From an uncultured virus (IMG/VR IMGVR_UViG_2061766007_000491) (lineage: Duplodnaviria > Heunggongvirae > Uroviricota > Caudoviricetes): a stretch of 54,388 bases of DNA. This document shows positions 5,550-54,388 of this stretch, in pieces. A program made the position numbers and the translations under genes. The notes under the pieces were generated by a model. That model searched no databases and was not told the origin of the DNA. It worked only from the letters and a program-made list of their open reading frames with translations. Location of the stretch: the IMG/VR virus record IMGVR_UViG_2061766007_000491. One strand, 5' to 3'. The first letter of the stretch is position 1; each line of letters opens with the position of its first letter.

Positions 5550-6376
5550 ATGGGAGAGTTGATTAGACCACCTTTTGCGTACATAGGAGCCAAGACAAGG
5601 TTTCTGGACTGGATATATTCTTTTTTCCCACACCATACTACGTTTGTGGATGTGTTTGGTGGTTCGGGGGTAGTGACGTTTAACAAAGTACCTTCCAAGA
5701 ATGATGTGTATAACGATCTGAACGGAAGGATAGTGAACTTCTATTCAGTGTTAAGGGACGTGTATATGCGACAGGTACTAGCGGAGTTGATAAGCCTGAC
5801 ACCGTATTCCAGAGAGGAGTTTAAGGCGTGTAAAGAACCAAGTGACGAACCTGTGGAGGATGCCAGACGTTTTTATGTGAAGCAGAACATGAGCTTTTCA
5901 GCGTGTGGGCATAGTTTTGGTTATGTACGAGGTGATGTAACATCCAAGCGCACAACATTTTATGAGCTAGATTGGGGGGGGTAATAAAGAGGATGCAGAT
6001 GATTACGTTTGAGAATTTGCCCTTTGAACGTATGTTTGAGAACTACGATTCATCTAGCACGTTGTTTTATTGTGACCCACCGTATATTGAGACTTATGGA
6101 ACGAATGAATATACAGGCGAGTGGGGACAGAAGGAACAGGATAGACTTATAGATGTGTTACGGAATGCTAAGGGTTATGTGGTTATGTCCAGCTATGAGC
6201 ATGAGTCTCTGGATAGGTTATTAAAAGAGGGATGGCAGTTGGAAAAGAAAGAGGTTTCCTGTGCTTATAAGAACTCGGTGGATGGTTTGGGCAAGGTAGA
6301 TACAAAGAGGGTTGAGTGCTTGTATATCAATCCGAAAGTGGTTAATGATGTAAAGAATAGGTTTTTATTCAAGTAA
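5550..6376 (+). pseudogene. Dam/D12-class adenine methyltransferase frameshifted at a G8 tract (possibly phase variable)
   Basis: First half (5550-5984) has YIGAK, FVDVFGGSG, VYNDLN; second half (5972-6376) has FYCDPPY; frames join if the tract at 5974-5981 is G9. Confidence 0.85.
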
Positions 6377-16016: not shown

Positions 16017-16092
16017 GTCCCCATAGCTCAAATGGATAGAGCAGTGGTTTCCTAAACCATAGATCGCAGTTCAATTCTGTGTGGGGATGCCA
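16017..16092 (+). tRNA. tRNA-Arg(CCT)
   Basis: GTCCCCA/TGGGGAT acceptor stem, anticodon arm GTGGT-TTCCTAA-ACCAT, T-loop, encoded CCA. Confidence 0.9.
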
Positions 16093-19200: not shown

Positions 19201-21237
19201 ATGGCTAAGAATAAGAATGATTACAGTTCAATGTGTCGCCTGAGCAATCCAAAGATGGCTACAGGCATATTGCCACTTGATATTATTACGAACGGTGGAA
19301 TCGTGAGGGGCGATATTGTAGCCCTCACCGCAGCCGAAGGTGTGGGCAAGTGTCTCACCAAAGATAATATCATCTACACGGCAGAAGGTTTACGCAGACT
19401 GGCAGATTTGGTGGAAGTGCCTGGTCTGGCTGGTGAAGGAACCAGTATAGTGGCTGAGGTACGTTTACAAGTGTTAGGTCAGGTACATTACAGTAAGAAG
19501 CTGTACCATAGAGGCGTGAGTCCTGTTTATAAGCTGACAACGAAGTGGGGTCATACGATCACGGCTACACCTGAGCATAAGGTTCGTATGGCAAGCGGAG
19601 AATGGAAGGATGTTTCCGACATAAATGTCGGGGAGAAGGTCGAGCTTAACTACGAGGAACATGGTGCAGAGGTACAGAGACCTTTAACGTATCCGATATG
19701 CGCAGAAGTAAGTGATGATGTGCGTCAGGAGATCGGTGGGCGTGAGTGTTGGGTGATGGGTTATCTGTATAGCCACACAGCACTATGCGCTGGGAATTTC
19801 GGTACAGGTAAGTTTTATGCCTATGTTGATATGATGGATATTTCAGAGCGTGAGGATAAGATAGCTCTGGTGGACACTCTTCAAAGCCTGGGTGCTGATG
19901 TCGTGTTGACAGGCGAAAGCATTATCAAGTTCGCATACGATCAAAAGAGCTTCATGGGCGCAGCGTTTAACCGATGGGAAAAGAAGTCTGCGAGAATACC
20001 TTGGTTTGTCTGGAAAAACAGTTATGAGAACCAAGTCCAGTTCGTTCTAGGTTACATGGCGAAGTCGGACGTAAAAGAGTGTTTCTCTGATGGTGCAGTG
20101 CGTTTCCATAGTTATGAAGCAGCACGTTTCGCAAAAAACGTGTTCCAGTTGAACAAGAGTAATTATAAGATATACTGCGATTGTGGTTCATGGTATGTAG
20201 GCGAACTTGATTTTAATGGCGAGGGCGAGGACACAGTGGTCAGTGTTGAATACGCTGGCATGGAAGAGGTGTTCGACATCCAAGACAGTGATTGCAGTTG
20301 CTTTATCGCTGAGGGTATCGTGGTTCATAATAGTACAACCATGATGCAGTTGGTAAAGAACAGGATTGCACAGGAACAGAATGTGGCTTTTCTGGACGTG
20401 GAAACAGGGTTCACTGAGGATATTCTGCGAGACAGTTATCATGTGTTGGAATACCATAGCTGTGAGATTGGCCAGAATAAGCTGTTTATGGTATCACCGA
20501 CTACTTGGGCAGAGGTAGATGAACTGTTTACCAAGATATTGGAATCGGACTATTACAGCGATATTATCATTGACTCGATCAGTAGTATTATCAGCAGTGG
20601 GTTAGGCATTAAGAACATTGAACAGGGTGCTGCCATTGGTGAGGATGCGAGGATGCAGAGCTTATTCCTGAGAAAGTATAAGCCATTGTTACGAGCAAAG
20701 GGTGTGACGCTCTGGTGTGTCAATCAGGTTCGTGCGAACATTAGCAATACAGGATTCAGCGGGTTCGGTGCGCCGTTGACAAAGCCGTCTGGCGGTAAGG
20801 CGTTAAAGCACATGGCTGATATTTTGCTAACGATGACAGCAGGTGAGCCTATTACGAGACGAGGTATCAATACTATCAATCAGGACGATAAGGCTGTTAT
20901 TATTGGCAATAAAGCATGGTTGAAAGCGGATAAGAACCGCAGAGCAATGCCTAAGATTAAGGTGATGATAGCTATTCTGTTCGGTCTGGGCGTGAGCAAT
21001 CAGATGAGCCTTTTTGATATATTATTGAAAAGTTCGTACTTGACACAGAGCAGTCCTGGGCGTTATGTTCTGAACGGCTTTGATGACCAAAAGCTGCAAG
21101 GACAGGAAAAGGTCTTTGCGTACATCCGAGACAACTATGCAGAGTTATTGCCCTGGTGTGAAAAGCAGGGTATCTTGAACCTGATTCAAGAGGGGATTCA
21201 GGTTGACGATGAAATAGAGTCTGTGGATGCAGAATAA
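19201..21237 (+). CDS. RecA/UvsX-like recombinase containing an intein
   Basis: TGILPLDIITNGGI, Walker A AEGVGK/S, FLDVE, IIIDS, VNQVR, PSGGKALKH. Confidence 0.9.
   Translation: MAKNKNDYSSMCRLSNPKMATGILPLDIITNGGIVRGDIVALTAAEGVGKCLTKDNIIYTAEGLRRLADLVEVPGLAGEGTSIVAEVRLQVLGQVHYSKKLYHRGVSPVYKLTTKWGHTITATPEHKVRMASGEWKDVSDINVGEKVELNYEEHGAEVQRPLTYPICAEVSDDVRQEIGGRECWVMGYLYSHTALCAGNFGTGKFYAYVDMMDISEREDKIALVDTLQSLGADVVLTGESIIKFAYDQKSFMGAAFNRWEKKSARIPWFVWKNSYENQVQFVLGYMAKSDVKECFSDGAVRFHSYEAARFAKNVFQLNKSNYKIYCDCGSWYVGELDFNGEGEDTVVSVEYAGMEEVFDIQDSDCSCFIAEGIVVHNSTTMMQLVKNRIAQEQNVAFLDVETGFTEDILRDSYHVLEYHSCEIGQNKLFMVSPTTWAEVDELFTKILESDYYSDIIIDSISSIISSGLGIKNIEQGAAIGEDARMQSLFLRKYKPLLRAKGVTLWCVNQVRANISNTGFSGFGAPLTKPSGGKALKHMADILLTMTAGEPITRRGINTINQDDKAVIIGNKAWLKADKNRRAMPKIKVMIAILFGLGVSNQMSLFDILLKSSYLTQSSPGRYVLNGFDDQKLQGQEKVFAYIRDNYAELLPWCEKQGILNLIQEGIQVDDEIESVDAE
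19351..20331 (+). mobile_element. Intein (327 aa) in the Walker A motif of the recombinase
   Basis: Starts CLTKD, block B ATPEH, ends FIAEGIVVHN followed by Ser; central degenerate LAGLIDADG-like helices. Confidence 0.9.
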
Positions 21238-21255
21238 GTGTGTTTGAGGTGTGGG

Positions 21256-22515
21256 ATGAAGGTAAAGATTCATAATTTCCAATCCATTGCAGATGCCGAA
21301 TTGACGTTTGACAAGGGTTTAATAGCGATCACTGGCCCGAATAGCTCTGGGAAGAGTGCAATTTTCAGAGCGTTAAGGTCAGTGATACAGAACCCTTCGA
21401 CTGCCAAGCATTCTGTGAAAAAAGGTACAAAGCGAGCCGAGGTTACTGTTTCTGGACTCGATAATGCACCTGATGTTACTTGGGCAAGAACCTCACTGGA
21501 AAGCAGTTATAAGACAGCAGAAGGTGAGTTTCAACGGGCAGGTCGCAATAACGTCTATGACTTTTTACCTTCATTCCCGCTTAAAATGGACGGAGCGAGG
21601 ATGTTGAACTTTCAGACGGAATGGGATACGCTGTTTCCGTTCGAGAAGAGCAATACCGAGCTATACACTTTATTTGAACGTATATTCAGTGTAGTGGATA
21701 GTGCTTCTATCGTGAATGTGATGAAGCAAGACGAGAAGGAAGCGAAAGCAAAGCTGAACAATACGATTGATGAATTGAACAAGCTGTCTCAACGAGAACA
21801 ACTGAGAAAGGATATTTTTACCGATGACCAGAATGAGGCTATGGTGCTGAACCTGGTTAAAAAGGTAGAGGAGACAGAGACTTTAGCCAGTGCAGCGAAA
21901 GAAGCGTTTGGTGCGCTAAGTACATGGTCTAGTTTGTTAGAATTAGCTAAGAAGGTTACAGACATAACCGTTTCAGACACCGACATAACAACCGTGAAAC
22001 AAGCGTTAGACCTTCGTAAAGACTATGATACGGTCTGTGAGCTTTCAAAGTTACTGGCTTTATCAAACATTTCCCCTATAGAGTGCTTCATAGGGGGTAT
22101 TGAAGAATACTTCGCAATAGCGAGGGACTTGGAGGATTTGGAAACTATGACTAGAATCGTCAATAGCTTTTCTCTTGATACACCACTATTTGACGATGGT
22201 TCACTAGATGTAGTTTCACGGGCATTAGCGATGCGTGCTGATTACCTAAACTTAACTAAACTTGAATCACTTACAACTGAAGCACAAGGGGTTCAAGATA
22301 TAAATTCTTCTCTTACTGCGCTGGATGAGTTATCTAGCGTCTTGCCAAAAATCACACAACTCAAAGATGCCCTCACTTTATACGAAGAACTAAAGAAGAA
22401 AGAAGCAGAACTCGCTGAATTGGAGAAGGATTTAGCAGTGGTGAATGCTGAATTAAATAAAATAAATGTGTGTCCGTTATGCGGTACACCAATAGGAGAC
22501 CATAAACATGAATAA
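21256..22515 (+). CDS. SbcC/Rad50-like ATPase, N-terminal part
   Basis: IHNFQSI, Walker A GPNSSGKS, Q-loop, coiled coil ending in zinc hook CPLCG. Confidence 0.85.
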   Translation: MKVKIHNFQSIADAELTFDKGLIAITGPNSSGKSAIFRALRSVIQNPSTAKHSVKKGTKRAEVTVSGLDNAPDVTWARTSLESSYKTAEGEFQRAGRNNVYDFLPSFPLKMDGARMLNFQTEWDTLFPFEKSNTELYTLFERIFSVVDSASIVNVMKQDEKEAKAKLNNTIDELNKLSQREQLRKDIFTDDQNEAMVLNLVKKVEETETLASAAKEAFGALSTWSSLLELAKKVTDITVSDTDITTVKQALDLRKDYDTVCELSKLLALSNISPIECFIGGIEEYFAIARDLEDLETMTRIVNSFSLDTPLFDDGSLDVVSRALAMRADYLNLTKLESLTTEAQGVQDINSSLTALDELSSVLPKITQLKDALTLYEELKKKEAELAELEKDLAVVNAELNKINVCPLCGTPIGDHKHE

Positions 22516-45126: not shown

Positions 45127-45203
45127 TGCCCTGTAGCTCAGTTGGATAGAGCGGGTGACTGTTAATCACTAGGGCGGTGGTTCGAGTCCACCTGGGGCAG
45201 CCA
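45127..45203 (+). tRNA. tRNA-Asn(GTT)
   Basis: TAGCTCAGTTGGATAGAGC D-arm, GGTGA-CTGTTAA-TCACT anticodon arm, GGTTCGAGTCC, encoded CCA. Confidence 0.93.
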
Positions 45204-45304
45204 TTTCTCTCTGTGATAGAGAGATTTATACAATACTTGTAAGAGGTTAGTTCTCCTTTCTTGACCTCTCTGTGTTGCAGGGTATTGTGTGTTCATATTG
45301 AATG

Positions 45305-45338
45305 CCGTGTGTAGCTAAGGTTATACACGGTTTTTTAT
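45305..45338 (+). terminator. Intrinsic terminator directly upstream of cassette array 1
   Basis: CCGTGTGTAGC-TAAG-GTTATACACGG followed by TTTTTT. Confidence 0.75.
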
Positions 45339-45341
45339 TGT

Positions 45342-46523
45342 CTGAATGGTGTTATCCGAGGTGGGCATTACAGTACAAGCAAGGTGTTATATGCTAGGTG
45401 TAGCGGATATAGGAATGCGCATAGTCATGTAGAGAGTCAAATAGGGTTTCGCTGTGAATGGTGTAGAAAGGGGTGGCAGATCAAATATAGCATCTAATAG
45501 TCAGAGGTGTGGGAGTAGGTTAGTGCATTACAGTAGGGGTACAGAGATAAGTTCCTTTGGGTTTCGTCTGTGAATGGTGTATTGATGGGAGGGGCAAATA
45601 GTAATGCAGCAATGTATGTGCGGTGTGGTGGGTATAGGAATGCAGATGGTACAAGATGGAACGCACATACAGCAGTGAGAGGGTTTCGCTGGGGTGTGAA
45701 TGGTGTAGAAAGGAGGGTGGATAGAGGTGCTAGGTGGATGTTAGCTAGTGATTATGTAAGAGCTAGTTATAGGGATGTTTCTAAGGTAGTGGCGATACAG
45801 GATATAATAGGGTTTCCCTGTGGATGGTGTATTCAGGGGTGGACGTGCAGGGTTACAATCTAGGTATATTAGGTGTGGTCTTAGGAATGGGAGTGAAGTT
45901 TTGAGTTATGGAGGTAGCGGAGTAGGGTTTCGCTGAATGGTGTAGTGAGAGGCAGTGGTTCCTATAAGGGTACGTCAGTAGTTTATTTTAGGAGTGGTTA
46001 TAGAATTGGGACTAATTTAAGGAGTAGGGTAGCAGAACACATAGGGTTTCGTCTGAATGGTGTACGAAGGGGTGGTACAGGTATAGTGTCAGTTACAATG
46101 TTTCAGGCGAACAGGGTAAGGTGTGGGAGTAGATACACTAGGCAATTTAGCGGTGATAGTAGTTTAATAGGGTTTCGTTTGGGGTGTGAATGGTGTAATA
46201 AGAGGCGGGAATTGGTCAAGGTTTCAGGGGGCAGATGCTTATAGATGTGGTCGAAGAGTAGGGAGTGTGTTAAGTAATGAAGTAGGGTTTCGTTCTGAAT
46301 GGTGCTATACGGAGTGGGAGATATAGCTACAGTCCGTTTTATATGCGAGGTGGGTATAGGAATAATGGTGCGTTGAGTTATGTGAATAAGACGTTAGGGT
46401 TTCGTTCTGAATGGTGTATATCGAGGTGCAGGTGCTATTAGTATGAATGTAATGTGGTTTAGAGGAGGTGAAAGAGGTGGGGTATATGCGAGGTCGTATG
46501 CGACTTCTAATGTAGGGTTTCGT
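45342..46523 (+). repeat. Cassette array 1: 10 variant C-terminal segments of the FGE/CLec-fold proteins
   Basis: Units start (C/G)TG(A/G)ATGGTG near 45342, 45454, 45570, 45696, 45820, 45933, 46053, 46186, 46295, 46407 and end GGGTTTC(G/C); each reads NGVxRG...GFR without stops. Confidence 0.9.
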
Positions 46524-46550
46524 TGACAACTCTCTGGGGCATGGTATAGT
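46523..46550 (+). promoter_or_regulatory. Sigma70-like promoter abutting the last cassette of array 1
   Basis: TTGACA-N16-TATAGT with TG extension. Confidence 0.65.
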
Positions 46551-46578
46551 GGGGTTGGCTATATTGTGAGGTGGGTAT

Positions 46579-48057
46579 ATGATAGATAGGAATTGGGTTA
46601 TAGATGTAGATGACATTGCTTGCTGGCTCGACCAGATGGACAATCCGCAACGGTATGGGGCGCAGAGCATGGGTAACTTCCCTGTGACGTGTGATGTGAG
46701 TTATCAGGGCAGTCCGTGTACGAATGTGTTTGGCTATTTACAGCCTGATTATGGCGGGAGTTATTGGCCTCCTGGGACGTATGCGCCTGGGTGGAGTGCA
46801 ACACTGCATAATGACGCTGTAAAGGTGACTGTGCCTGCTACATGGGGGGATTATTATTCCAGTGTAACGAGTCCTAGCAGTGGGTATCATGCGAAGTGGA
46901 TATTAGACAAGGACATACCTGGTGGCTTGATGATGGAAATGAATAATCCGTCAGGGGGCAACGGCGGTGTGGTCAACAGGGATATACGCTCTTGGGTGAA
47001 CATAGATGCGTTGTTATCACAGCAGAAGGAGTGTGTGATTAGCTTTGAGGGCAGAGGCAGTGCAGGGATGCAGGTACGCACAGCGGTTCATGGTAAGTAC
47101 GCAAGCGCAGATAGTAACGCTTTTCTGTATCAAGAGGACATTGATCTGGATGAGGCTTGGCACGAATACGCTGGACACTGGCATTGTACGGGTGTGAGCG
47201 GTTCAGGGAGTTTTTACTTTTTCGGGAATCTGGTGGCTGGACAGTTGCAGGTGCGGAATCCGATGCTGACTACAACAGGGAGGAAATGCAGATACACGCC
47301 TGGGACACGAGGGGCTACAGTGAATACGGGGGGTGGATGGCAAGATGTTACCTTTCAGGGTAACAATGTGGACTTAACAGACGGTGCTTTTGACTGGAAC
47401 GATTGGATTTTATCGCTTGGCAAATACTTCACAGATACCAGTTCCATATTGAATGTGGGGTCAGAGGTTATATCCCCGACTTATAACAGGTATAGGTTTA
47501 TCACGATTGAATGCTGGGTGCGTAAGAATAGCCTAGCCAGTGACGCTATAACGGACTGTGCCATATACGGAGCGCAGAATACAAGCGGTCTGGTGCTGAA
47601 TCGGTACGGTCAGTTTAACTTTGTATGTGCCAACAGTTCGAGCAATCTGGATAGGTATGAGTACCCTGGTATTGACAGCAATAGGATTATCCAGTATATC
47701 AATACCGATCAATGGTATCATGTCGTGCAGATGATAGGGAATAAGCACGTTTGTTATGTGAATGGTGTGAAGGTGCATGAGACGAGTGATCTGGCTTGGA
47801 ATCCCACCATAGGCACTAGCTTTAAGTTTTTACACGGAAATGCAGACTGGCTGACTCAGACAGTGAACACGAATAACAGCAAGTCCAGAGTCATGCAGAA
47901 TGGATGCTGGTCAGTGCAGTGCTTGAGAGTGTATAAACGGTTATTGACCGATGAAGAGGTTTTAGCGTGTTACAACGCTGAAAAGGAAATGTATGTGGGG
48001 GCGTTAGGTGATGCCTCTTTTGATACGAATAATATAGCGGATATAGCGTATGCTTGA
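46579..48057 (+). CDS. LamG/ConA-like lectin-domain protein with an upstream carbohydrate-binding-like domain (possible virion adhesin)
   Basis: ITIECWV, QWYHVV, YVNGV, LRVYKRLLTDEEV...YNA. Confidence 0.8.
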   Translation: MIDRNWVIDVDDIACWLDQMDNPQRYGAQSMGNFPVTCDVSYQGSPCTNVFGYLQPDYGGSYWPPGTYAPGWSATLHNDAVKVTVPATWGDYYSSVTSPSSGYHAKWILDKDIPGGLMMEMNNPSGGNGGVVNRDIRSWVNIDALLSQQKECVISFEGRGSAGMQVRTAVHGKYASADSNAFLYQEDIDLDEAWHEYAGHWHCTGVSGSGSFYFFGNLVAGQLQVRNPMLTTTGRKCRYTPGTRGATVNTGGGWQDVTFQGNNVDLTDGAFDWNDWILSLGKYFTDTSSILNVGSEVISPTYNRYRFITIECWVRKNSLASDAITDCAIYGAQNTSGLVLNRYGQFNFVCANSSSNLDRYEYPGIDSNRIIQYINTDQWYHVVQMIGNKHVCYVNGVKVHETSDLAWNPTIGTSFKFLHGNADWLTQTVNTNNSKSRVMQNGCWSVQCLRVYKRLLTDEEVLACYNAEKEMYVGALGDASFDTNNIADIAYA

Positions 48058-49249
48058 TTTTTTGGAGATAGTAGGGAGTAGTGCCACGTTTAAGTTGTCA
48101 GGTGGTGCGATCAGTAACTTTGCAAAGACACCGACCTTGAGGGTGCAGTGTATAGATCAACAGAACCATGCCGTGTTTGAATATACATTCACGGGAAGTG
48201 AATCTACAACGTATGGCAGTGCGTTACCGTATGGGTATTATGAGGTGCGTGTCGTGGCTTATAATAGCTATGGTCAGGTGGTCAGTAAGACAAAGCCGTT
48301 ACTTTTGTATAAAACACCGATGGCAGGGTTCGTGTATATTAAGAAAGGCACGTTCACGATGGGCAGTCCTGAAAGTGAAGTGGGACACCAAGCGAATGAG
48401 GCACAGCAGAGCTTTACCATAAGCAAGGATTATCTTATCCAGAGAACGCCCTGCACACCGAAGTATTTGAGTGCTGTTAAGACTGCGTATGCGACATTGT
48501 ATAACAGTGGGGTGACTCTGACTAGGGTTAAGATCACGAATGCGGAATGGTCAACCACAGCAATCAATCAGGGTACAATGTACGGTAGCTGGTCTGCCAG
48601 TGATGAGACGCCAGCAGTTAGTATCTCGTGGGAGCGTATCATGGATGTGGACACAGCGAATAGTACGATTAGTGGCAGTGCTGCGCCTTACACGGCTACT
48701 GCGACACCGTTCAGTAGTAGTGGTGTGGGTATCTGCACGGCGTTGAATGCGTTGAATCGAAGCGGTCAGGATTATTATTTGAGTGGGTATCAGTATTGTT
48801 TACCAACGGAATGCCAGTGGGAATTTGCGTGTAGGGCAGGTTGTTCCGATGCGTTGTATAATGACACGGCTTTGGATGCCACGACAACGCCAGCCTATAC
48901 AGCAGCCAGCAGTCCCCAGCCGAACCTATGCGAGATAGCTTGGTATAACTATAATTCAGGCGGTTCTAAGAAAAAGGTGGGATTGTTAAAGCCAAACGCA
49001 TGGGGGTTATACGATATGTTAGGGAACGTATGGGAATGGGTGCTAGACCAGTACAATGCGAGTTACGCAGCAGTAGCTACAGCAGGTGAAACGGTGCATG
49101 GCTCGCCAGTTTACACGGAAGTGTCAAGTGGCTCCTGGGGTGTGAATGGTGTATTAAGGGGTGGGCATTATGGGAATCAAGCTGGTAGGTTAAAGCAGAG
49201 AGCGAATGTATTGTTTAGNNNNNNNNNNATAGCTCTTAGCCCAGCATAG
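48050..49249 (+). CDS. FGE-sulfatase/C-type-lectin-fold protein, target gene 1 (N-gap in its variable tail)
   Basis: GTFTMGSP.SE, PAVSISW, LPTECQWEFACRAG, KPNAWGLYDMLGNVWEW, VLRGG; ends IALSPA* after the gap. Confidence 0.9.
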   Translation: MLDFLEIVGSSATFKLSGGAISNFAKTPTLRVQCIDQQNHAVFEYTFTGSESTTYGSALPYGYYEVRVVAYNSYGQVVSKTKPLLLYKTPMAGFVYIKKGTFTMGSPESEVGHQANEAQQSFTISKDYLIQRTPCTPKYLSAVKTAYATLYNSGVTLTRVKITNAEWSTTAINQGTMYGSWSASDETPAVSISWERIMDVDTANSTISGSAAPYTATATPFSSSGVGICTALNALNRSGQDYYLSGYQYCLPTECQWEFACRAGCSDALYNDTALDATTTPAYTAASSPQPNLCEIAWYNYNSGGSKKKVGLLKPNAWGLYDMLGNVWEWVLDQYNASYAAVATAGETVHGSPVYTEVSSGSWGVNGVLRGGHYGNQAGRLKQRANVLFXXXXIALSPA

Positions 49250-50320
49250 CGCAGTGTTGGAGGCGGAGCCGACAACAGCATAGGATTTCCACGGCGGATG
49301 CCGTTGTGCCGAAGGCACTTATGGTATATACTAATAGCAAGTATTTTTTACTTACTATTAGTATAATTATTTTATAAATAATAGAGCCATATTTAGTTAT
49401 GGATGTCCAGCCCGAAGAGGCGAGACGAGTGGGGATAGAAGGGATAATGGTGTATTAAGGGGTGGGCAGTATAGCAGGGATGCTTACTTAGCACGGTGTA
49501 GTGGGTTAAGGAATGGATGGGGGAAGTGGAATCAAGGTGGTGGAGTAGGGTTTCGTATTGGGGTCGAGTCCGCAGAGACCAGACGGCAGTGGTTGAATGG
49601 TGGTGTAATAAGGGGAGCAGGGTTAGGGTATGCTTATGCTTTCAGGACGAGGGTAGGTTTTAGGTTGACAGGATATAACTTTAAGTATAGTAGTGTAAGT
49701 GACTTAGGGTTTCGTTGTGGGGTAGGCGTGAATGGTGTAAGAGCGGATAGAGGCGGTAGATGGGGTTTAGGGTCAGATTATATACGTTGTAGTTATAGGG
49801 ATAGGAGTAGTCAAGGGAGTGGTGGTGATAAGGTAGGGTTTCGCTGAATGGTGTAAATAGGGGAGGTTGCATTAGGGCAGAAGAACCAGCATGGAGGGTA
49901 AGGAATGCTAGTAGGATGAATTGGTATGGTTTAACGCATACATGGAATATAAAAGGGTTTCGTCTGAATGGTGTTAGTAGAGGTGGTGCTTATGTGCGAA
50001 CAGGAGGTCATACTAGGAGTAGTGGGAATAGGTGGCATAGCAGTTCAAGGGTGGATGTGAATAGTGGAATAGGGTTTCGTTCTGAATGGTGATTATAGAG
50101 GGGGTTCGTATAAAAGTGGGCAACCAATGTATATTAGAATTGGTTATAGAAGTGGTTTTAGTAGGGGGTATGTGAGTGTTTACATAGGGTTTCGCTGTGA
50201 ATGGTGTGTTAAGGGGTGGAGTATATACAAGAACAGGTGAATACAATAGAAGTAGTGGGTATAGGTTTAATAGAGTAATGACGTTAGTGAATAGTGGAAT
50301 AGGGTTTCGTTTTGTGTAAA

Positions 50321-50338
50321 TTGTTCCACGTGGAACAA
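50321..50338. promoter_or_regulatory. parS-like palindrome, copy 1
   Basis: TTGTTCCACGTGGAACAA matches the bacterial parS consensus TGTTNCACGTGNAACA. Confidence 0.75.
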
Positions 50339-50592
50339 AGGTGAATGGTGCGTTAAGGTCGTATGCGTATGATAGAGCCAGTTTGTATATGAGGAGTGGA
50401 AATAGACGGTCTTATGCAATTAGTGGGACAGGTACAGGTGGTGCATTAGGGTTTCGTTTAGCTGTGAATGGTGTCCGTAGGGGTGGATGTAGCTTAGGGT
50501 CTTTTAGTAATGCGTTTTTTAATAGAATTGTTTATAAGCGAGTTACTGCTATGGATTATGTGTATAATGCGTTAGGGTTTCGTTTGTGTAAA

Positions 50593-50610
50593 TTGTTCCA
50601 CGTGGAACAA
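50593..50610. promoter_or_regulatory. parS-like palindrome, copy 2
   Basis: TTGTTCCACGTGGAACAA with the same TTTGTGTAAA flank as copy 1. Confidence 0.75.
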
Positions 50611-53098
50611 AAGGAATGGTGTCTATCGAGGTGGGCAGGTTGATTCATCCAGTGCAGATAAGCAATGTGTGTCTTATAGGAGTAGTTATCCAGTATTGAG
50701 TTATGTGAATAAGACGTTAGGGTTTCGTCTGAATGGTGTATTGATGGGAGGGGCATATAGTAATGCAGCAATGTATGTGCGGTGTGGTGGGTATAGGAAT
50801 GCAGATGGTACAAGATGGAACGCACATACAGCAGTGAGAGGGTTTCGTCTGAATGGTGTATATCGGGGTGGCAGTGTGACACAAACGGCTAGTGTAGTGA
50901 AGGTTAATTATAAGAGAGGAGATAAGAGGGGCATGACGTATCAGGCAGTAGGGTTTCGCTGAATGGTGTATTGAGAGGTGGAGCATCTAATTCAGCAACG
51001 GTATGGTATTATCGCAGTAGTGGATATAGGAATGTTAAAGGTTTAGAGATAACAGCGGAAAATAGAGGGTTTCGTCTGAATGGTGTGCAGAGAGGTGGGT
51101 CGTGGTTTAATGTAAGTGTGTATTCAAGACATGGTTATAGAAGGGGTGTTGCTTTTAATACTATAGGTAATACAGCGTTTGGGTTTCGTTCTGTGTGAAT
51201 GGTAGTGGAATAGTAAGGGGAGGAGGGTATCATTATCATGCTACAGGTTTTAGATGTGGGAGGAGGATGGCTAGGGCGAATGAATCGTCATTAGGGGGGA
51301 TTTATATAGGGTTTCGCCTGAATGGTGTATATCGGGGTGGAAGCAGTAGTACAAGTTTAGCTAGTAATACGAATAGGAGTGGGCATAGGAGAACAAGGGA
51401 AAAGAATGTAAGTGGGATGAGTGCAGTAGGGTTTCGTATCTGAATGGCGTGGCTAGGGGTGGACAGACAAGTAATTTAGTGGATAGATATAGAAGTGGGT
51501 ATAGGTGGGTATCGAGTGCGAGGACGTATGTGCATGGTGGGATAGGGTTTCGTGCTGTGGGGTGAATGGTGTAATAAGGCCAGCGCATAAGATACATCAG
51601 GCATATATGTATAGGTGTGGAATGAGATATGGATATGCAAGTAGGAATACGGCATGGAATGGATATATAGGGTTTCGTTTATCTGAATGGTGTAGCCAGA
51701 GGTGGATATTATAGTGCAACGTATGGTCATGCAAAGGATTGTAGGAGTGGAAGGAGACGTGAGGACTTTAATAGGAGGGTGGGCAATGTGGTGATAGGGT
51801 TTCGTTCTGAATGTTGTGGTTCGAGGTGGGGCTTATAACAATAGTTCAGATAGGTGTATATGTGCAGGGCATAGGAGGAATACTTATACAAGACCAACAG
51901 CGAATAGTGCGGTAGGGTTTCGTTTGGGGGTGTGAATGGTGTATTGAGGGGTGGGCAGTATGGGAATCAAGCTGGTAGGTTAAAGCAGAGAGCGAATGTA
52001 TTGTTTAGCTATAGTACGGCTTATGTAGGGTTTCGTTCTGAATGGTGCTAGGCGGGCTAGTAGGGTAAACGAGGTTAATAGTGCTAAGGAAGAAAGGTGT
52101 GCGTGGAGAACTCCGAGGGAACGAGATTCAGGGAATGCGAGTATAGGGTTTCGTTCTGAATGGTGTAGATCGTGGGGGCAGTACACATATTAGCTGGAAG
52201 GCATATCAGTATAGGGTTGGGAATCGTGAGACTAACACTAGGAGGACATCAGGGGGTGGATTAGGGTTTCGTTTGGGGTGTGAATGGTGTATTACGGGGG
52301 TCGGGATATAGGAGTCCGTCAATGGAGTTTAGGAATGGTGGGCGTAGGTATCAGAACTATAAGAAGAGTCAATCAGCGGAGAGCTTAGGGTTTCGTTTGA
52401 GGTGTGAAGGGTGCTAGGAGGAGTGTTGCGTTTGATAATACGAACTTTGCAACGTATGGAAGGAGTGGTCGAAGGAATGGAAGCAGTGCTAGGTCGGACA
52501 GAGCGATATACATAGGGTTTCGCTGAGGGTGTGAATGGTGTAGTGTTAAGAGGGGGTGACGCATGGAATACGCTAANNNNNNNNNNNNNNNNNNNNNNNN
52601 NNNNNNNNNNNNNNNNNNNNNNNNNNNNNNNNNNNNCTGAATGGTGCTAGTAGGGGTGGGTATTTTAATAACAGTGCAAGTCTGTTTAGATGTGGTGGAT
52701 ATAGAAATAGCGGTTCATTGAGTTATGTGCATAGTGGGATAGGGTTTCGCTGGGGTGTGGATGGTGTAGAAAGGGGTTGTTATTATAGTTCTAGTTATGG
52801 GTATGCTTCTAGGACTAGGAGCGGACGCAGACAGAGTGTTACAGTGGGTAATGATAATCCAGCAGTAGGGTTTCGCCTGAATGGTGTACGTAGAGGTGGC
52901 GCACATGAGCAGGTATCGAGAAGTGTGAGGTGTTCGTGGAGGGTTGCTAGGTTAAGGGACAATCCTAGTGCCACGTTCGGGTTTCGTCTGAATGGTGTGA
53001 ATCGAGGTGGGAGTTATACGCAGTACAATTTAGTGTATATGTATAGAAGTGGTGGGTTAAGACAACCGTATGTAAGGAGTCATCCATTAGGGTTTCGC

Positions 53099-53127
53099 TT
53101 GACGTTCTGATATGTGTTTGATAGAGT
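53099..53127 (+). promoter_or_regulatory. Sigma70-like promoter abutting the last cassette of array 2
   Basis: TTGACG-N17-TAGAGT followed by GGGGTCGGCTATATTG, like the leader after array 1. Confidence 0.5.
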
Positions 53128-53158
53128 GGGGGTCGGCTATATTGGATAGGGTTGGGTT

Positions 53159-54388
53159 ATGTACGATTTTTTGGAGATAGTAGGGAGTAGTGCCACGTTT
53201 AAGTTGGTGGGTGCAACGCAGAGCGGTTTTGTTAAAGCACCGACATTGAAGGTGCAGTGTGTAGATCAGCAGACGCAGATGGCTTATGAAGAGCCGTATT
53301 ATGGTACGGACGCAGCACAGTATGGAGCGAAACTGCCATGCGGTTATTTTAAGGTGCGAGTGGTCGCCTATAACGAGTACGGTATGGAAATGGCTGGCAC
53401 TAAGCCGTTATACCTGTATAAGACGCTGGTTCCTGGCTTTGTGTATGTCAAGAAGGGTGCGTTTAAGATAGGCAGTCCGTCAACCGAAGTGGGACACCAG
53501 AGCAACGAGAATCAGGCGAACTATGTTTTGACACAGGATTTTATGATACAGCGGACGTGTTGCACGGGTGCGTATCTAAGAGGTGTAGCAGACGCATACC
53601 ATAGTCTGACGAAAACAGGCATTACACGGACACAGATCACGAATGCGACTTGGTACAGTCCTGAGCCAGCATTGCCAGCGGATATGTTCAACTATTCAGG
53701 CAGTGCTGCATGGGTGGGTACAGATGAAACGCCAGCGGTGAGTATATCATGGGAGAGGATTATGGACGTGCAGACGACTAACGCTAACAGTACGGTGAGC
53801 AATCATGTGGCGGTGGCTTATCCGTTCGCTGATTATGCAGGGGTGTGTACCGCTCTGAACGCTCTGAATAGTGCCAGTGATACGGACTATGGATGCAGTG
53901 GGTGGGTTTATACATTGCCGACCGAAGCACAGTGGGAGTACGCTTGCAGGGGTGGCACGACTACGGCGTTATATAACGGTACAGGGCTGGATATGACAGC
54001 AGTGCCGAGCTATACGACAGCGAACAGTCCACAGCCTAACTTGCAGAGGATTGCATGGTACAATTACAATAGCTATGGAAGCAAGAAGGTAGTGGGTCAG
54101 CTAGAACCGAACAGGTGGGGGCTATACGATATGTTAGGGAACGTATGGGAATGGGTGTTAGATCAGTATAATAGCAGTTATACGAGTGTGCTTAATGGTG
54201 GCGAGACACTACACGGGTCGCCAGTTTATACAGAAGTCACCTCTAACTCCTGGGGTGTGAATGGTGTAGTGTTAAGAGGGGGTGACGCATGGAATACGCT
54301 AACAAGCGCAAGTGGATGGAGGTGTGGACGCAGGTATGGGTATAGGAATGTAGGCCCTACTTATACTGGAAAGGCTTTAGGGTTTCGT
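53159..54388 (+). CDS. FGE-sulfatase/C-type-lectin-fold protein, target gene 2 (runs off the window; absent from the ORF track)
   Basis: Frame MYDFLEIVGSSATFKL...LPTEAQWEYACRGG...NRWGLYDMLGNVWEW...WGVNGVVLRGGDAWNTLTSASGWRCGRRYGYRNVGPTYTGKALGFR; paralog of 48050-49249. Confidence 0.9.
   Translation, partial: MYDFLEIVGSSATFKLVGATQSGFVKAPTLKVQCVDQQTQMAYEEPYYGTDAAQYGAKLPCGYFKVRVVAYNEYGMEMAGTKPLYLYKTLVPGFVYVKKGAFKIGSPSTEVGHQSNENQANYVLTQDFMIQRTCCTGAYLRGVADAYHSLTKTGITRTQITNATWYSPEPALPADMFNYSGSAAWVGTDETPAVSISWERIMDVQTTNANSTVSNHVAVAYPFADYAGVCTALNALNSASDTDYGCSGWVYTLPTEAQWEYACRGGTTTALYNGTGLDMTAVPSYTTANSPQPNLQRIAWYNYNSYGSKKVVGQLEPNRWGLYDMLGNVWEWVLDQYNSSYTSVLNGGETLHGSPVYTEVTSNSWGVNGVVLRGGDAWNTLTSASGWRCGRRYGYRNVGPTYTGKALGFR

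Follow-up and report, generated by a model that had tools for sequence, protein, structure and literature searches.

Why would a phage carry some forty short coding units, open in one reading frame and apparently silent, beside two genes whose ends they resemble? This question is raised by positions 45,342 to 54,388 of a 54,388-nucleotide (nt) stretch of DNA, hereafter the window, from an uncultured virus of the Caudoviricetes (IMG/VR record IMGVR_UViG_2061766007_000491). Two tandem arrays of cassettes are found there together with two genes, starting at 48050 and 53159, that encode proteins of the FGE-sulfatase family with a C-lectin (CLec) fold. An earlier note, made from the letters alone, had claimed that the phage stores a library of binding tips and swaps them into both genes. 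The analysis described here supports this claim through three layers of evidence: array 2 holds twins of both expressed tails, 24 near-identical orthologous bodies carry 23 distinct tails, and six of these 24 tails match cassettes that are silent in the window. The best reading, which we regard as probably the right one, is that the arrays constitute a library of silent cassettes copied non-reciprocally into two expression sites.

Two tandem arrays of direct repeats

The two arrays lie on the same (+) strand. Array 1 (45345-46523, +) contains 10 silent cassettes of 105-123 nt with an open NGV..GFR frame, and array 2 (49446-53098, +) contains 30 silent cassettes, 29 of them fully readable and one, starting at 52534, cut by a run of N (52577-52636). 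The exact boundary motif GGGTTTCG occurs 39 times on the + strand, 38 times within the arrays and once in the tail of the gene at 53159, and 0 times as its reverse complement on the - strand of the window, so that all cassettes are direct repeats. When every copy of the motif is paired with the preceding (G)AATGGTG, readable units of 102-123 nt are delimited, and the lengths of all 39 are divisible by three. Each unit runs from a 5' box, TGAATGGTGT (codons NGV), to a 3' box, AGGGTTTCG (codons GFR), of about 10 nt each; both boxes are at least 90% conserved across the 39 units and are also present in the genes at 48050 and 53159. Apart from a common peptide scaffold, N-G-V-x-R-G-G ... R-x-x-G-x-R ... 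(I/V/L)-G-F-R, the units have no resemblance to each other: compared with its best match among the other units, a unit reaches a median peptide identity of 53% and a maximum of 66%. Spacers of 3 to 40 nt separate the units, and the reading frame is kept across 14 of the 36 junctions and shifted across 22. The layout that the earlier note had described, i.e., two tandem arrays (10 + 30) of units of ~105-130 bp on an NGV..GFR scaffold identical to the C-terminus of both FGE-sulfatase genes, is therefore confirmed at the coordinates given above, both genes ending in the scaffold, and the frame-shifting junctions that it reported are those 22.

The cassettes encode the end of a C-lectin fold

Gene 1, the first expression site (48050..49249, +), and gene 2, the second (53159..54388, +), both match the FGE-sulfatase family PF03781 of Pfam (E 4.4e-26 and 7.1e-27, respectively) and are paralogues, 60% identical by BLASTP. 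The variable tail of gene 1 begins at 49145 and its 3' part is masked by a run of N (49219-49228); the gene ends in GFR-IALSPA-stop. That it closes with GFR plus six residues, like its orthologues, follows from the four public sequencing runs aligned, in each of which the sequence leading up to 49229-49233 finishes with the 3' box. The tail of gene 2 occupies 54260-54388, and the window stops at its 3' box.

The Pfam match is not restricted to the conserved body but extends into the tail, up to residue 394 of 409 (E 7.1e-27). Sequence matches in the PDB include PvdO, PorK/GldK, human FGE and TvpA, and the PorK alignment (residues 251-404) spans the tail. Furthermore, an AlphaFold2 model was obtained for the orthologue P0126, which has a 99% identical body and a complete C-terminus, from an alignment of 102 rows; its predicted template modelling score (pTM) is 0.82, and the predicted local distance difference test (pLDDT) averages 80-90 in ten-residue blocks over residues 371-409, where both the RGG end and the GFR end form strands. 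Foldseek searches with this model return PvdO and FGE among the top matches, as well as TvpA (2y3c, E 3.6e-11). Altogether, membership of the FGE-sulfatase/C-lectin fold holds over the whole domain, including the end encoded by the cassettes, and these Pfam, PDB, AlphaFold2 and Foldseek matches indicate that a cassette corresponds to the C-terminal segment of an FGE-type C-lectin fold. In the reading proposed here, each cassette encodes an alternative version of the last ~35-40 residues, comprising the RGG strand, the variable loops and the GFR strand. The C-terminal segment of this fold is the ligand-binding variable region in the targets of diversity-generating retroelements (DGRs).

About 50 nt past the stop of gene 1 (49250-49300), within a C-richer stretch, one frame reads ..DNSIGFPR, a degenerate tail-like remnant, noticed by eye, that may have been left behind by an older 3' end. 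A DGR-like homing hairpin was considered at the same C-richer stretch (49229-49325) and dropped, the structure not being unusual (z -0.6).

An open frame in silent units

The coding constraint on the units is strict. In the NGV..GFR frame the 39 units hold no stop in 1476 codons, as the earlier note had stated for the units it translated, while the other two frames hold 124 and 188 stops; composition-preserving shuffles (n=1000) yield a mean of 96.8 stops in that frame, with a minimum of 69. In turn, 15 of the 39 units have no ATG, GTG or TTG between the nearest upstream in-frame stop and NGV (a run of N precedes one of them), and in many units this stop is a TAG within the conserved 3' box of the previous unit. 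The earlier statement that the units lack their own ribosome binding site and start is hence borne out in part: it holds for these 15 startless units, whereas in some others the boundary motif provides a GTG in frame. Third codon positions also set the cassettes apart, with 5% C and 45% T, against 16-20% C and 29-33% T in the nearby expressed genes. This bias hints at a long residence of the cassettes without translational selection, their frame being nevertheless kept open.

Each array sits between a terminator and a promoter-like site, terminators being found before the arrays and promoter-like sites only after them. Directly 5' of array 1 lies an intrinsic terminator, a hairpin followed by a T run (45304..45331, +; -18.5 kcal/mol, z -4.8), and directly 3' of its last cassette, before the gene at 46579, a promoter-like site TTGACA-16-TATAGT with TG (46523..46550, +). 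The corresponding elements of array 2 are a 16-bp hairpin followed by an A/T-rich run, likely the terminator of gene 1, on its 5' side (49327..49364, +; -16.6 kcal/mol, z -4.5), and a promoter-like site TTGACG-17-TAGAGT with TG on its 3' side, before the gene at 53159 (53099..53127, +). None of 200 shuffles folds as well as either hairpin. Both promoter-like sites are calls by match to the consensus, the one at 46523..46550 with 11 of 12 consensus positions; by eye, the leader after array 2 resembles the leader after array 1. Judging from these flanks, from the frame-shifting junctions and from the missing starts, the units are silent.

Expressed tails have silent twins

All 41 complete or partial units were compared with each other: the two gene tails, the 39 readable cassettes and the cassette at 52534 that is masked in part by N. 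Exact blocks longer than 22 nt occur in only three pairs, the next longest block measuring 22 nt, and two of the three pairs consist of an expressed tail and a cassette of array 2. The silent twin of the gene 1 tail (51935..52036, +) shares with it a 50-nt exact block that reaches the N gap, with two mismatches further 5' (by eye). The silent twin of the gene 2 tail (52534..52576, +) shares a 34-nt exact interior block that also reaches an N gap, the remainder being masked by N. In both pairs the identity begins inside the 5' box. The third pair is a duplicated cassette with one copy in each array (45573..45689 and 50732-50848, +), 118 nt at 99% identity including 81 nt of exact match. The two runs of N in the region sit exactly where two-copy repeats, i.e., a tail and its twin, would break a short-read assembly. 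The presence of a twin in array 2 for both expressed tails would fit retention of the donor; the transfer is presumably non-reciprocal and directed from array to gene.

Near-identical bodies with unrelated tails

The relatives of the two genes constitute the second and third layers of evidence. A protein search with gene 2 returned three close clusters with 27 members (the gene 1 orthologue cluster being P0003). Full length is reached by 24 members, of which 14 are of gene-2 type and 10 of gene-1 type; they come from other assemblies and were compared at the protein level. Their bodies are 83-99.5% identical to the genes of the window, yet they carry 23 distinct tails, which answers the question raised by the earlier note, whether the tails are invariant across relatives: they are variable. 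One identical body of 365 residues is found with four unrelated tails in four proteins, and three further pairs of identical bodies have two tails each. Column by column, identity is 0.9-1.0 over most of the body, falls to about 0.2 in the cassette and returns to 0.83-0.87 in the final GFR-LALSPA stretch.

Moreover, 6 of the 24 orthologue tails match cassettes that are silent in the window, with peptide identities of 76-100%. Among the gene-1 orthologues, the tail of P0142 is the silent cassette 50467..50583 (+; 100% over 39 residues) and that of P0143 the silent cassette 52283..52396 (+; 95%). The tails of P0001 and P0130 both correspond to the duplicated cassette 45573..45689 (+), at 92% each. 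P0132 matches the cassette at 51935 at 76%, and P0140 the one at 51443 at 81% with an identical 3' half, which makes it a mosaic, the only clear one seen. Near-same tails are carried by P0122, of gene-2 type, and P0135, of gene-1 type. The comparison shows that tails are replaced rapidly between relatives and from a common pool of cassettes. The archive, though silent, is translatable.

In three of the 24 orthologues (P0130, P0134 and P0136) the sequence reads from the body through the tail into a junction of array type, as is expected if an array of the same genome holds a second copy of the tail, into which the assembly continued. In P0001, the last ~30 residues of the body before the tail are of gene-1 type and the remaining body is of gene-2 type; exchange tracts can therefore reach upstream of the 5' box, or the expression sites recombine together.

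This DNA was found in 20 public runs from 10 studies, bovine and sheep gut or rumen metagenomes; the runs aligned with the window consisted of assembled contigs, depth being left aside. Parts of both arrays are covered, with 90-99% identity, by contigs of three runs (bovine, sheep and one unlabelled) that belong to other studies, and the cassettes around 52262-52542 are conserved in place in all three. The last cassette has in one run 110 other letters between its boxes instead of 97, its neighbouring cassettes being conserved, and in another run a single stretch of 119 letters stands in place of two units. Contigs of the gene bodies end 16-22 letters into either tail, and those letters mismatch the window. 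Most of the reported "joints" were not counted as recombination, their sides of 21-35 letters being the conserved boxes.

Beyond these samples, a pattern of two junctions had 0 matches in IMG/VR, and a looser junction pattern gave 120 single matches there, all due to chance; in contigs of GTDB genomes the two-junction pattern gave eight single matches, which are likewise attributed to chance since none contains a unit according to the unit hidden Markov model (HMM). A search of viral and metagenome contigs with gene 2 returned only distant relatives, whose best segment did not exceed about 50% identity, and a search for related loci with the LamG protein encoded between array 1 and gene 1 gave no match. 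Among GenBank phages there was no DNA match, and the protein matches were remote only.

Analogous arrays in unrelated viruses

The unit HMM was also run over 270 loci, of which it flagged L144 and the pair L221/L137; a loose peptide regular expression was informative only when its matches clustered. L144 is a complete phage record of 87.8 kb with terminal repeats, unrelated to the phage of the window and with no RVT_1 match; a search for its relatives found no close ones. Between 7750 and 10585 it carries 16 tandem units of ~145 nt, each an FGE-fold tail (RGGSW..CRSAxR..IGFR). Nearly all of these units have their own start, 13 ATG and 2 GTG as judged by eye, mostly after a GGAGG-like site. They are located upstream of the only FGE body of the record, which stops before the RGG segment, and the last unit is joined in frame to the N-terminus of that body. 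The product of this arrangement may be a lectin fold that is split or circularly permuted and has alternative pieces.

L137/L235 (9900-11600) and L221 (4800-6200) are two strains of another virus, for which no RVT_1 match was found in a 33.7-kb record that is 48% complete. One tail unit is fused upstream of the FGE body, and the region downstream of the body holds seven (L137) or five (L221) further units in other frames; unit content differs between the strains, and one unit looks mosaic. In the bolder version of our reading, given below, the tail arrays of these two unrelated viral lineages, one of them in a complete genome with no RVT_1 match, would point to cassette archives as a widespread substitute for DGRs in diversifying this fold.

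How a cassette would reach an expressed gene

In the mechanism that we propose, one cassette at a time would be copied into the tail of the gene at 48050 or at 53159, its donor being kept, and the copied stretch would extend from the 5' box to the 3' box. Through this copying, sister phages with identical bodies would come to display unrelated binding tips. We favour gene conversion over short homology, or template switching, during recombination-dependent replication, both of which would accord with boxes as short as these and in which the UvsX-like recombinase of the phage could serve as copying machinery; a dedicated enzyme encoded elsewhere in the genome is equally possible. The candidates in the window are a UvsX/RecA-like recombinase with an intein (19201-21237, +; Pfam RecA and Intein_splicing, residues 66-377; PHROG UvsX-like) and, directly downstream, an SbcC-like ATPase (21238-22515, +; Pfam AAA_23). 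This UvsX-like protein and the SbcCD-like proteins are candidate recombination machinery whose link to the arrays is conjectural. By analogy, the purpose of the exchange would probably be an altered specificity for a ligand or host surface, and hence for adsorption or host range.

Several points weigh against this reading. The evidence comes from contigs, so that switching within a population, its rate and its direction are matters of inference. The shared boxes of ~10 nt are short for RecA-type recombination, and ordinary homologous recombination may therefore not suffice; at the same time, no dedicated switching enzyme is seen in the window. The scan covered the open reading frames (ORFs) of the window, and a reverse transcriptase or recombinase may lie outside its 54,388 nt. 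The runs of N mask the end of the gene 1 tail and most of the twin of the gene 2 tail. Moreover, 18 of the 24 orthologue tails have no cassette match in the window above 66%, which means that the repertoire exceeds the window or that tails have other sources, such as co-infecting phages. Finally, a place in the virion for the two FGE-fold proteins is a conjecture by analogy.

A bolder version can be formulated, in which the arrays would belong to a programmed viral system independent of reverse transcription: a dedicated activity that recognises the boxes would copy one of ~40 tips into either gene at high frequency, either through cleavage at a defined site followed by repair or through a guided switch of template. 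We consider this version possible, with the odds somewhat against it. If it were true, each burst would hold phages of differing receptor specificity.

Other explanations for the arrays

The main rival to a donor library is that the arrays are a passive by-product. The tails would be exchanged by ordinary recombination between co-infecting phages, and the arrays would be leftovers, either tandem duplications or displaced old tails, with no donor role. The 18 orthologue tails without a close cassette in the window fit this explanation, as does the patch of gene-1 type on the gene-2-type body of P0001, which indicates that ordinary recombination between paralogues or strains occurs; the degenerate ..IGFPR remnant ~50 nt past the stop of gene 1 also counts in its favour. 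Nevertheless, leftovers should decay, and the 39 units all keep lengths in threes and an uninterrupted frame; their third-position shift towards T suggests a long silent residence. Furthermore, a mere by-product gives no account of why the array keeps a twin of both expressed tails, why six tails expressed in other genomes match local silent cassettes, or why the cassettes at 52262-52542 are in place in three other runs. We hold this explanation to be improbable.

It could also be argued that the units are expressed, either as small peptides through GTG or CTG starts or through reinitiation, or as one repeat protein through frameshifts. In about 17 of the 39 units, by eye, NGV is preceded at three bases by a GTG or TTG in frame, the 14 junctions in frame create ORFs of up to 130 amino acids, and the similar units of the unrelated phage L144 have their own ATG, mostly behind a GGAGG-like site. 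In the window, by contrast, 15 of the units offer no canonical start, and no Shine-Dalgarno-like sequence is seen by eye before the GTGs, while the gene at 46579 has one. The arrays lie downstream of terminators and upstream of the promoter-like sites, and reading through them would need 22 frame shifts. Expression of the units would also leave unexplained why tails of relatives match them. It appears quite unlikely.

A relationship to DGRs has even less in its favour. According to this explanation, a reverse transcriptase encoded elsewhere in the genome would diversify the tails, and the units would be variable or template repeats. The fold and the position of the variable segment are indeed those of FGE-type DGR targets such as TvpA, and the genome extends beyond the window that was searched. 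Adenine mutagenesis of a single template, however, cannot yield differences in length and sequence of the kind seen here, where tails and cassettes range from 102 to 129 nt and share ~50% peptide identity. No unit is rich in Asn as a template would be, unlike the ordinary DGR template found in the locus L254; the differences between twin copies are not adenine-specific, as judged by eye; there is no RVT_1 match among the 111 ORF translations of the window, where Rfam detects only a tRNA; and the complete phage record with an analogous array, L144, has no RVT_1 match either. Such a derivation is very improbable.

Least probable of all is an assembly artefact, variants of one hypervariable tail having been strung together: the window does contain five runs of N, two of them in the array region, and ends inside a repeat, but the junction of 3' box, spacer and 5' box, which a single-tail gene does not have, occurs 36 times, array pieces of several units are found in contigs of three runs from other studies, P0130, P0134 and P0136 cross cassette junctions in other assemblies, and the runs of N are located exactly where two-copy repeats are expected to break.

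Relation to known diversification systems

The silent-cassette library has its closest counterparts in the antigenic variation of bacteria. Gene conversion from silent cassettes underlies the variation of Borrelia vlsE, with its contiguous vls array, Neisseria pilE/pilS, Treponema pallidum tprK and Anaplasma msp2. Here as there, one or few expression sites bearing a promoter are accompanied by nearby cassettes, startless and open in frame, for the variable segment only; short conserved sequences bound both cassette and recipient; the donor is kept after transfer, as would presumably be the case here; and clonal relatives differ only in that segment. Several hallmarks of such systems are present here, i.e., promoter-like expression sites, homologous cassettes bounded by boxes, a kept frame, and tails of relatives that can be traced to cassettes. 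Unlike the bacterial systems, the present one is carried by a virus, and what it diversifies is the C-terminal binding segment of an FGE-type C-lectin fold. A single archive serves two paralogous expression sites, cassettes seem mostly to be exchanged whole, and the presumed selective agent is variation of the host surface rather than antibody.

With DGRs, such as those of Treponema denticola TvpA (PDB 2y3c) and of Mtd in the Bordetella phage BPP-1, the locus shares the fold and its C-terminal variable segment, the occurrence in phages and the diversification of a ligand-binding surface. A C-lectin-fold target with a C-terminal variable region is present, then, but neither a reverse transcriptase nor a template is: among the 111 ORF translations of the window there is no reverse transcriptase, other retroelement family, integrase, recombinase or invertase, and neither an adenine-specific template nor an inverted cassette was found in the window. 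The variants of a DGR arise de novo from one template, whereas those described here are pre-stored, finite in number, of varied length and unrelated to each other.

Invertible tail-fibre segments and shufflons (Mu Gin, P1 Cin, R64 Rci) resemble the locus in that alternative C-termini of an adhesin are stored beside the gene. They differ from it in several respects: the cassettes are direct repeats, there are ~40 alternatives as against 2-7, and the donor would be copied and not inverted. The lack of boundary motifs on the - strand of the window, and of any invertase family among its 111 ORF translations, speaks against a shufflon or invertible segment here. The earlier note had held the system to be distinct from both a DGR and a shufflon, neither enzyme being visible, and this distinction stands, with no reverse transcriptase or invertase in the 111 ORFs and no inverted boxes.

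In the parts of the DGR survey PMC5758913 that were consulted, tandem target genes and tandem FGE domains are mentioned, but not arrays of tails only. In the literature searched, no description of silent cassette archives in a phage or any other virus was found. The logic of the archive is that of vls, pilS, tprK and msp2, and the substrate is that of the DGR; this is a combination that we have not found described for viruses.

Genomic context

The window appears to stem from a large phage, and its convincing genes all lie on the + strand. Among them are the UvsX/RecA-like gene with its intein, SbcC-like and SbcD-like genes, and genes for ribonucleotide reductase, thymidylate synthase, DHFR, several DNA methylases and a protein with a crAss001_48 domain. 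Between array 1 and gene 1, whose start it overlaps, lies a gene for a 492-residue protein with a Laminin_G_3/ConA-like lectin domain (46579..48057, +; Pfam PF13385, E 1e-9). Directly upstream of array 1 there is a tRNA-Asn(GTT) (45127..45203, +; ARAGORN, and Rfam tRNA with 63.8 bits), and the phage also has a tRNA-Arg(CCT) at 16017-16092; the Rfam scan of the window revealed nothing besides tRNA. Of the Arg codons in the cassettes, AGG is the most frequent (99 of 221), and 7.7% of the cassette residues are Asn.

Within array 2, a 25-nt sequence with the palindrome TTCCACGTGGAA is present in two exact copies (50315-50339 and 50587-50611) that flank two cassettes. This stretch has a higher summed depth in the contigs of the public runs, in which contigs continue from it into unrelated sequence, and the motif seemingly occurs elsewhere in those metagenomes as well; it is perhaps the end of a mobile element or a protein binding site.

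The GC skew is strongly positive throughout the window (1-54388; +0.14 to +0.60 per kb) and highest in the arrays; the coding strand is therefore C-poor. The window also encodes N6 and C5 DNA methylases, ThyA, DHFR, several glycosyltransferases and a large radical-SAM protein, a set that might point to modified DNA. At 5550-6376, two adjacent, slightly overlapping ORFs correspond to the N-terminal (profile positions 1-90) and C-terminal (153-241) parts of a D12 adenine methyltransferase; the pair is a split or frameshifted gene.

Implications

Arrays of this kind resemble non-coding repeats and break assemblies, as the two N gaps and the end of the window illustrate, and should be borne in mind by those who annotate viral genomes. 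From the point of view of the protein, the C-lectin fold, which is the classic substrate of DGRs, can undergo diversification in which no retroelement takes part. The system is, in addition, a testable one, with its two genes, two 10-nt boxes and 40 cassettes, for studying how a phage population spreads its bets over the variants of the host surface in the dense community of the rumen. Phages vary their adhesins through hypermutation by DGRs, through invertible segments and through recombination with other phages. If the reading proposed here is true, they would have a fourth route in an archive of silent tips that the phage carries itself and copies into expression sites, the route that pathogens such as Borrelia and Neisseria use against immunity.

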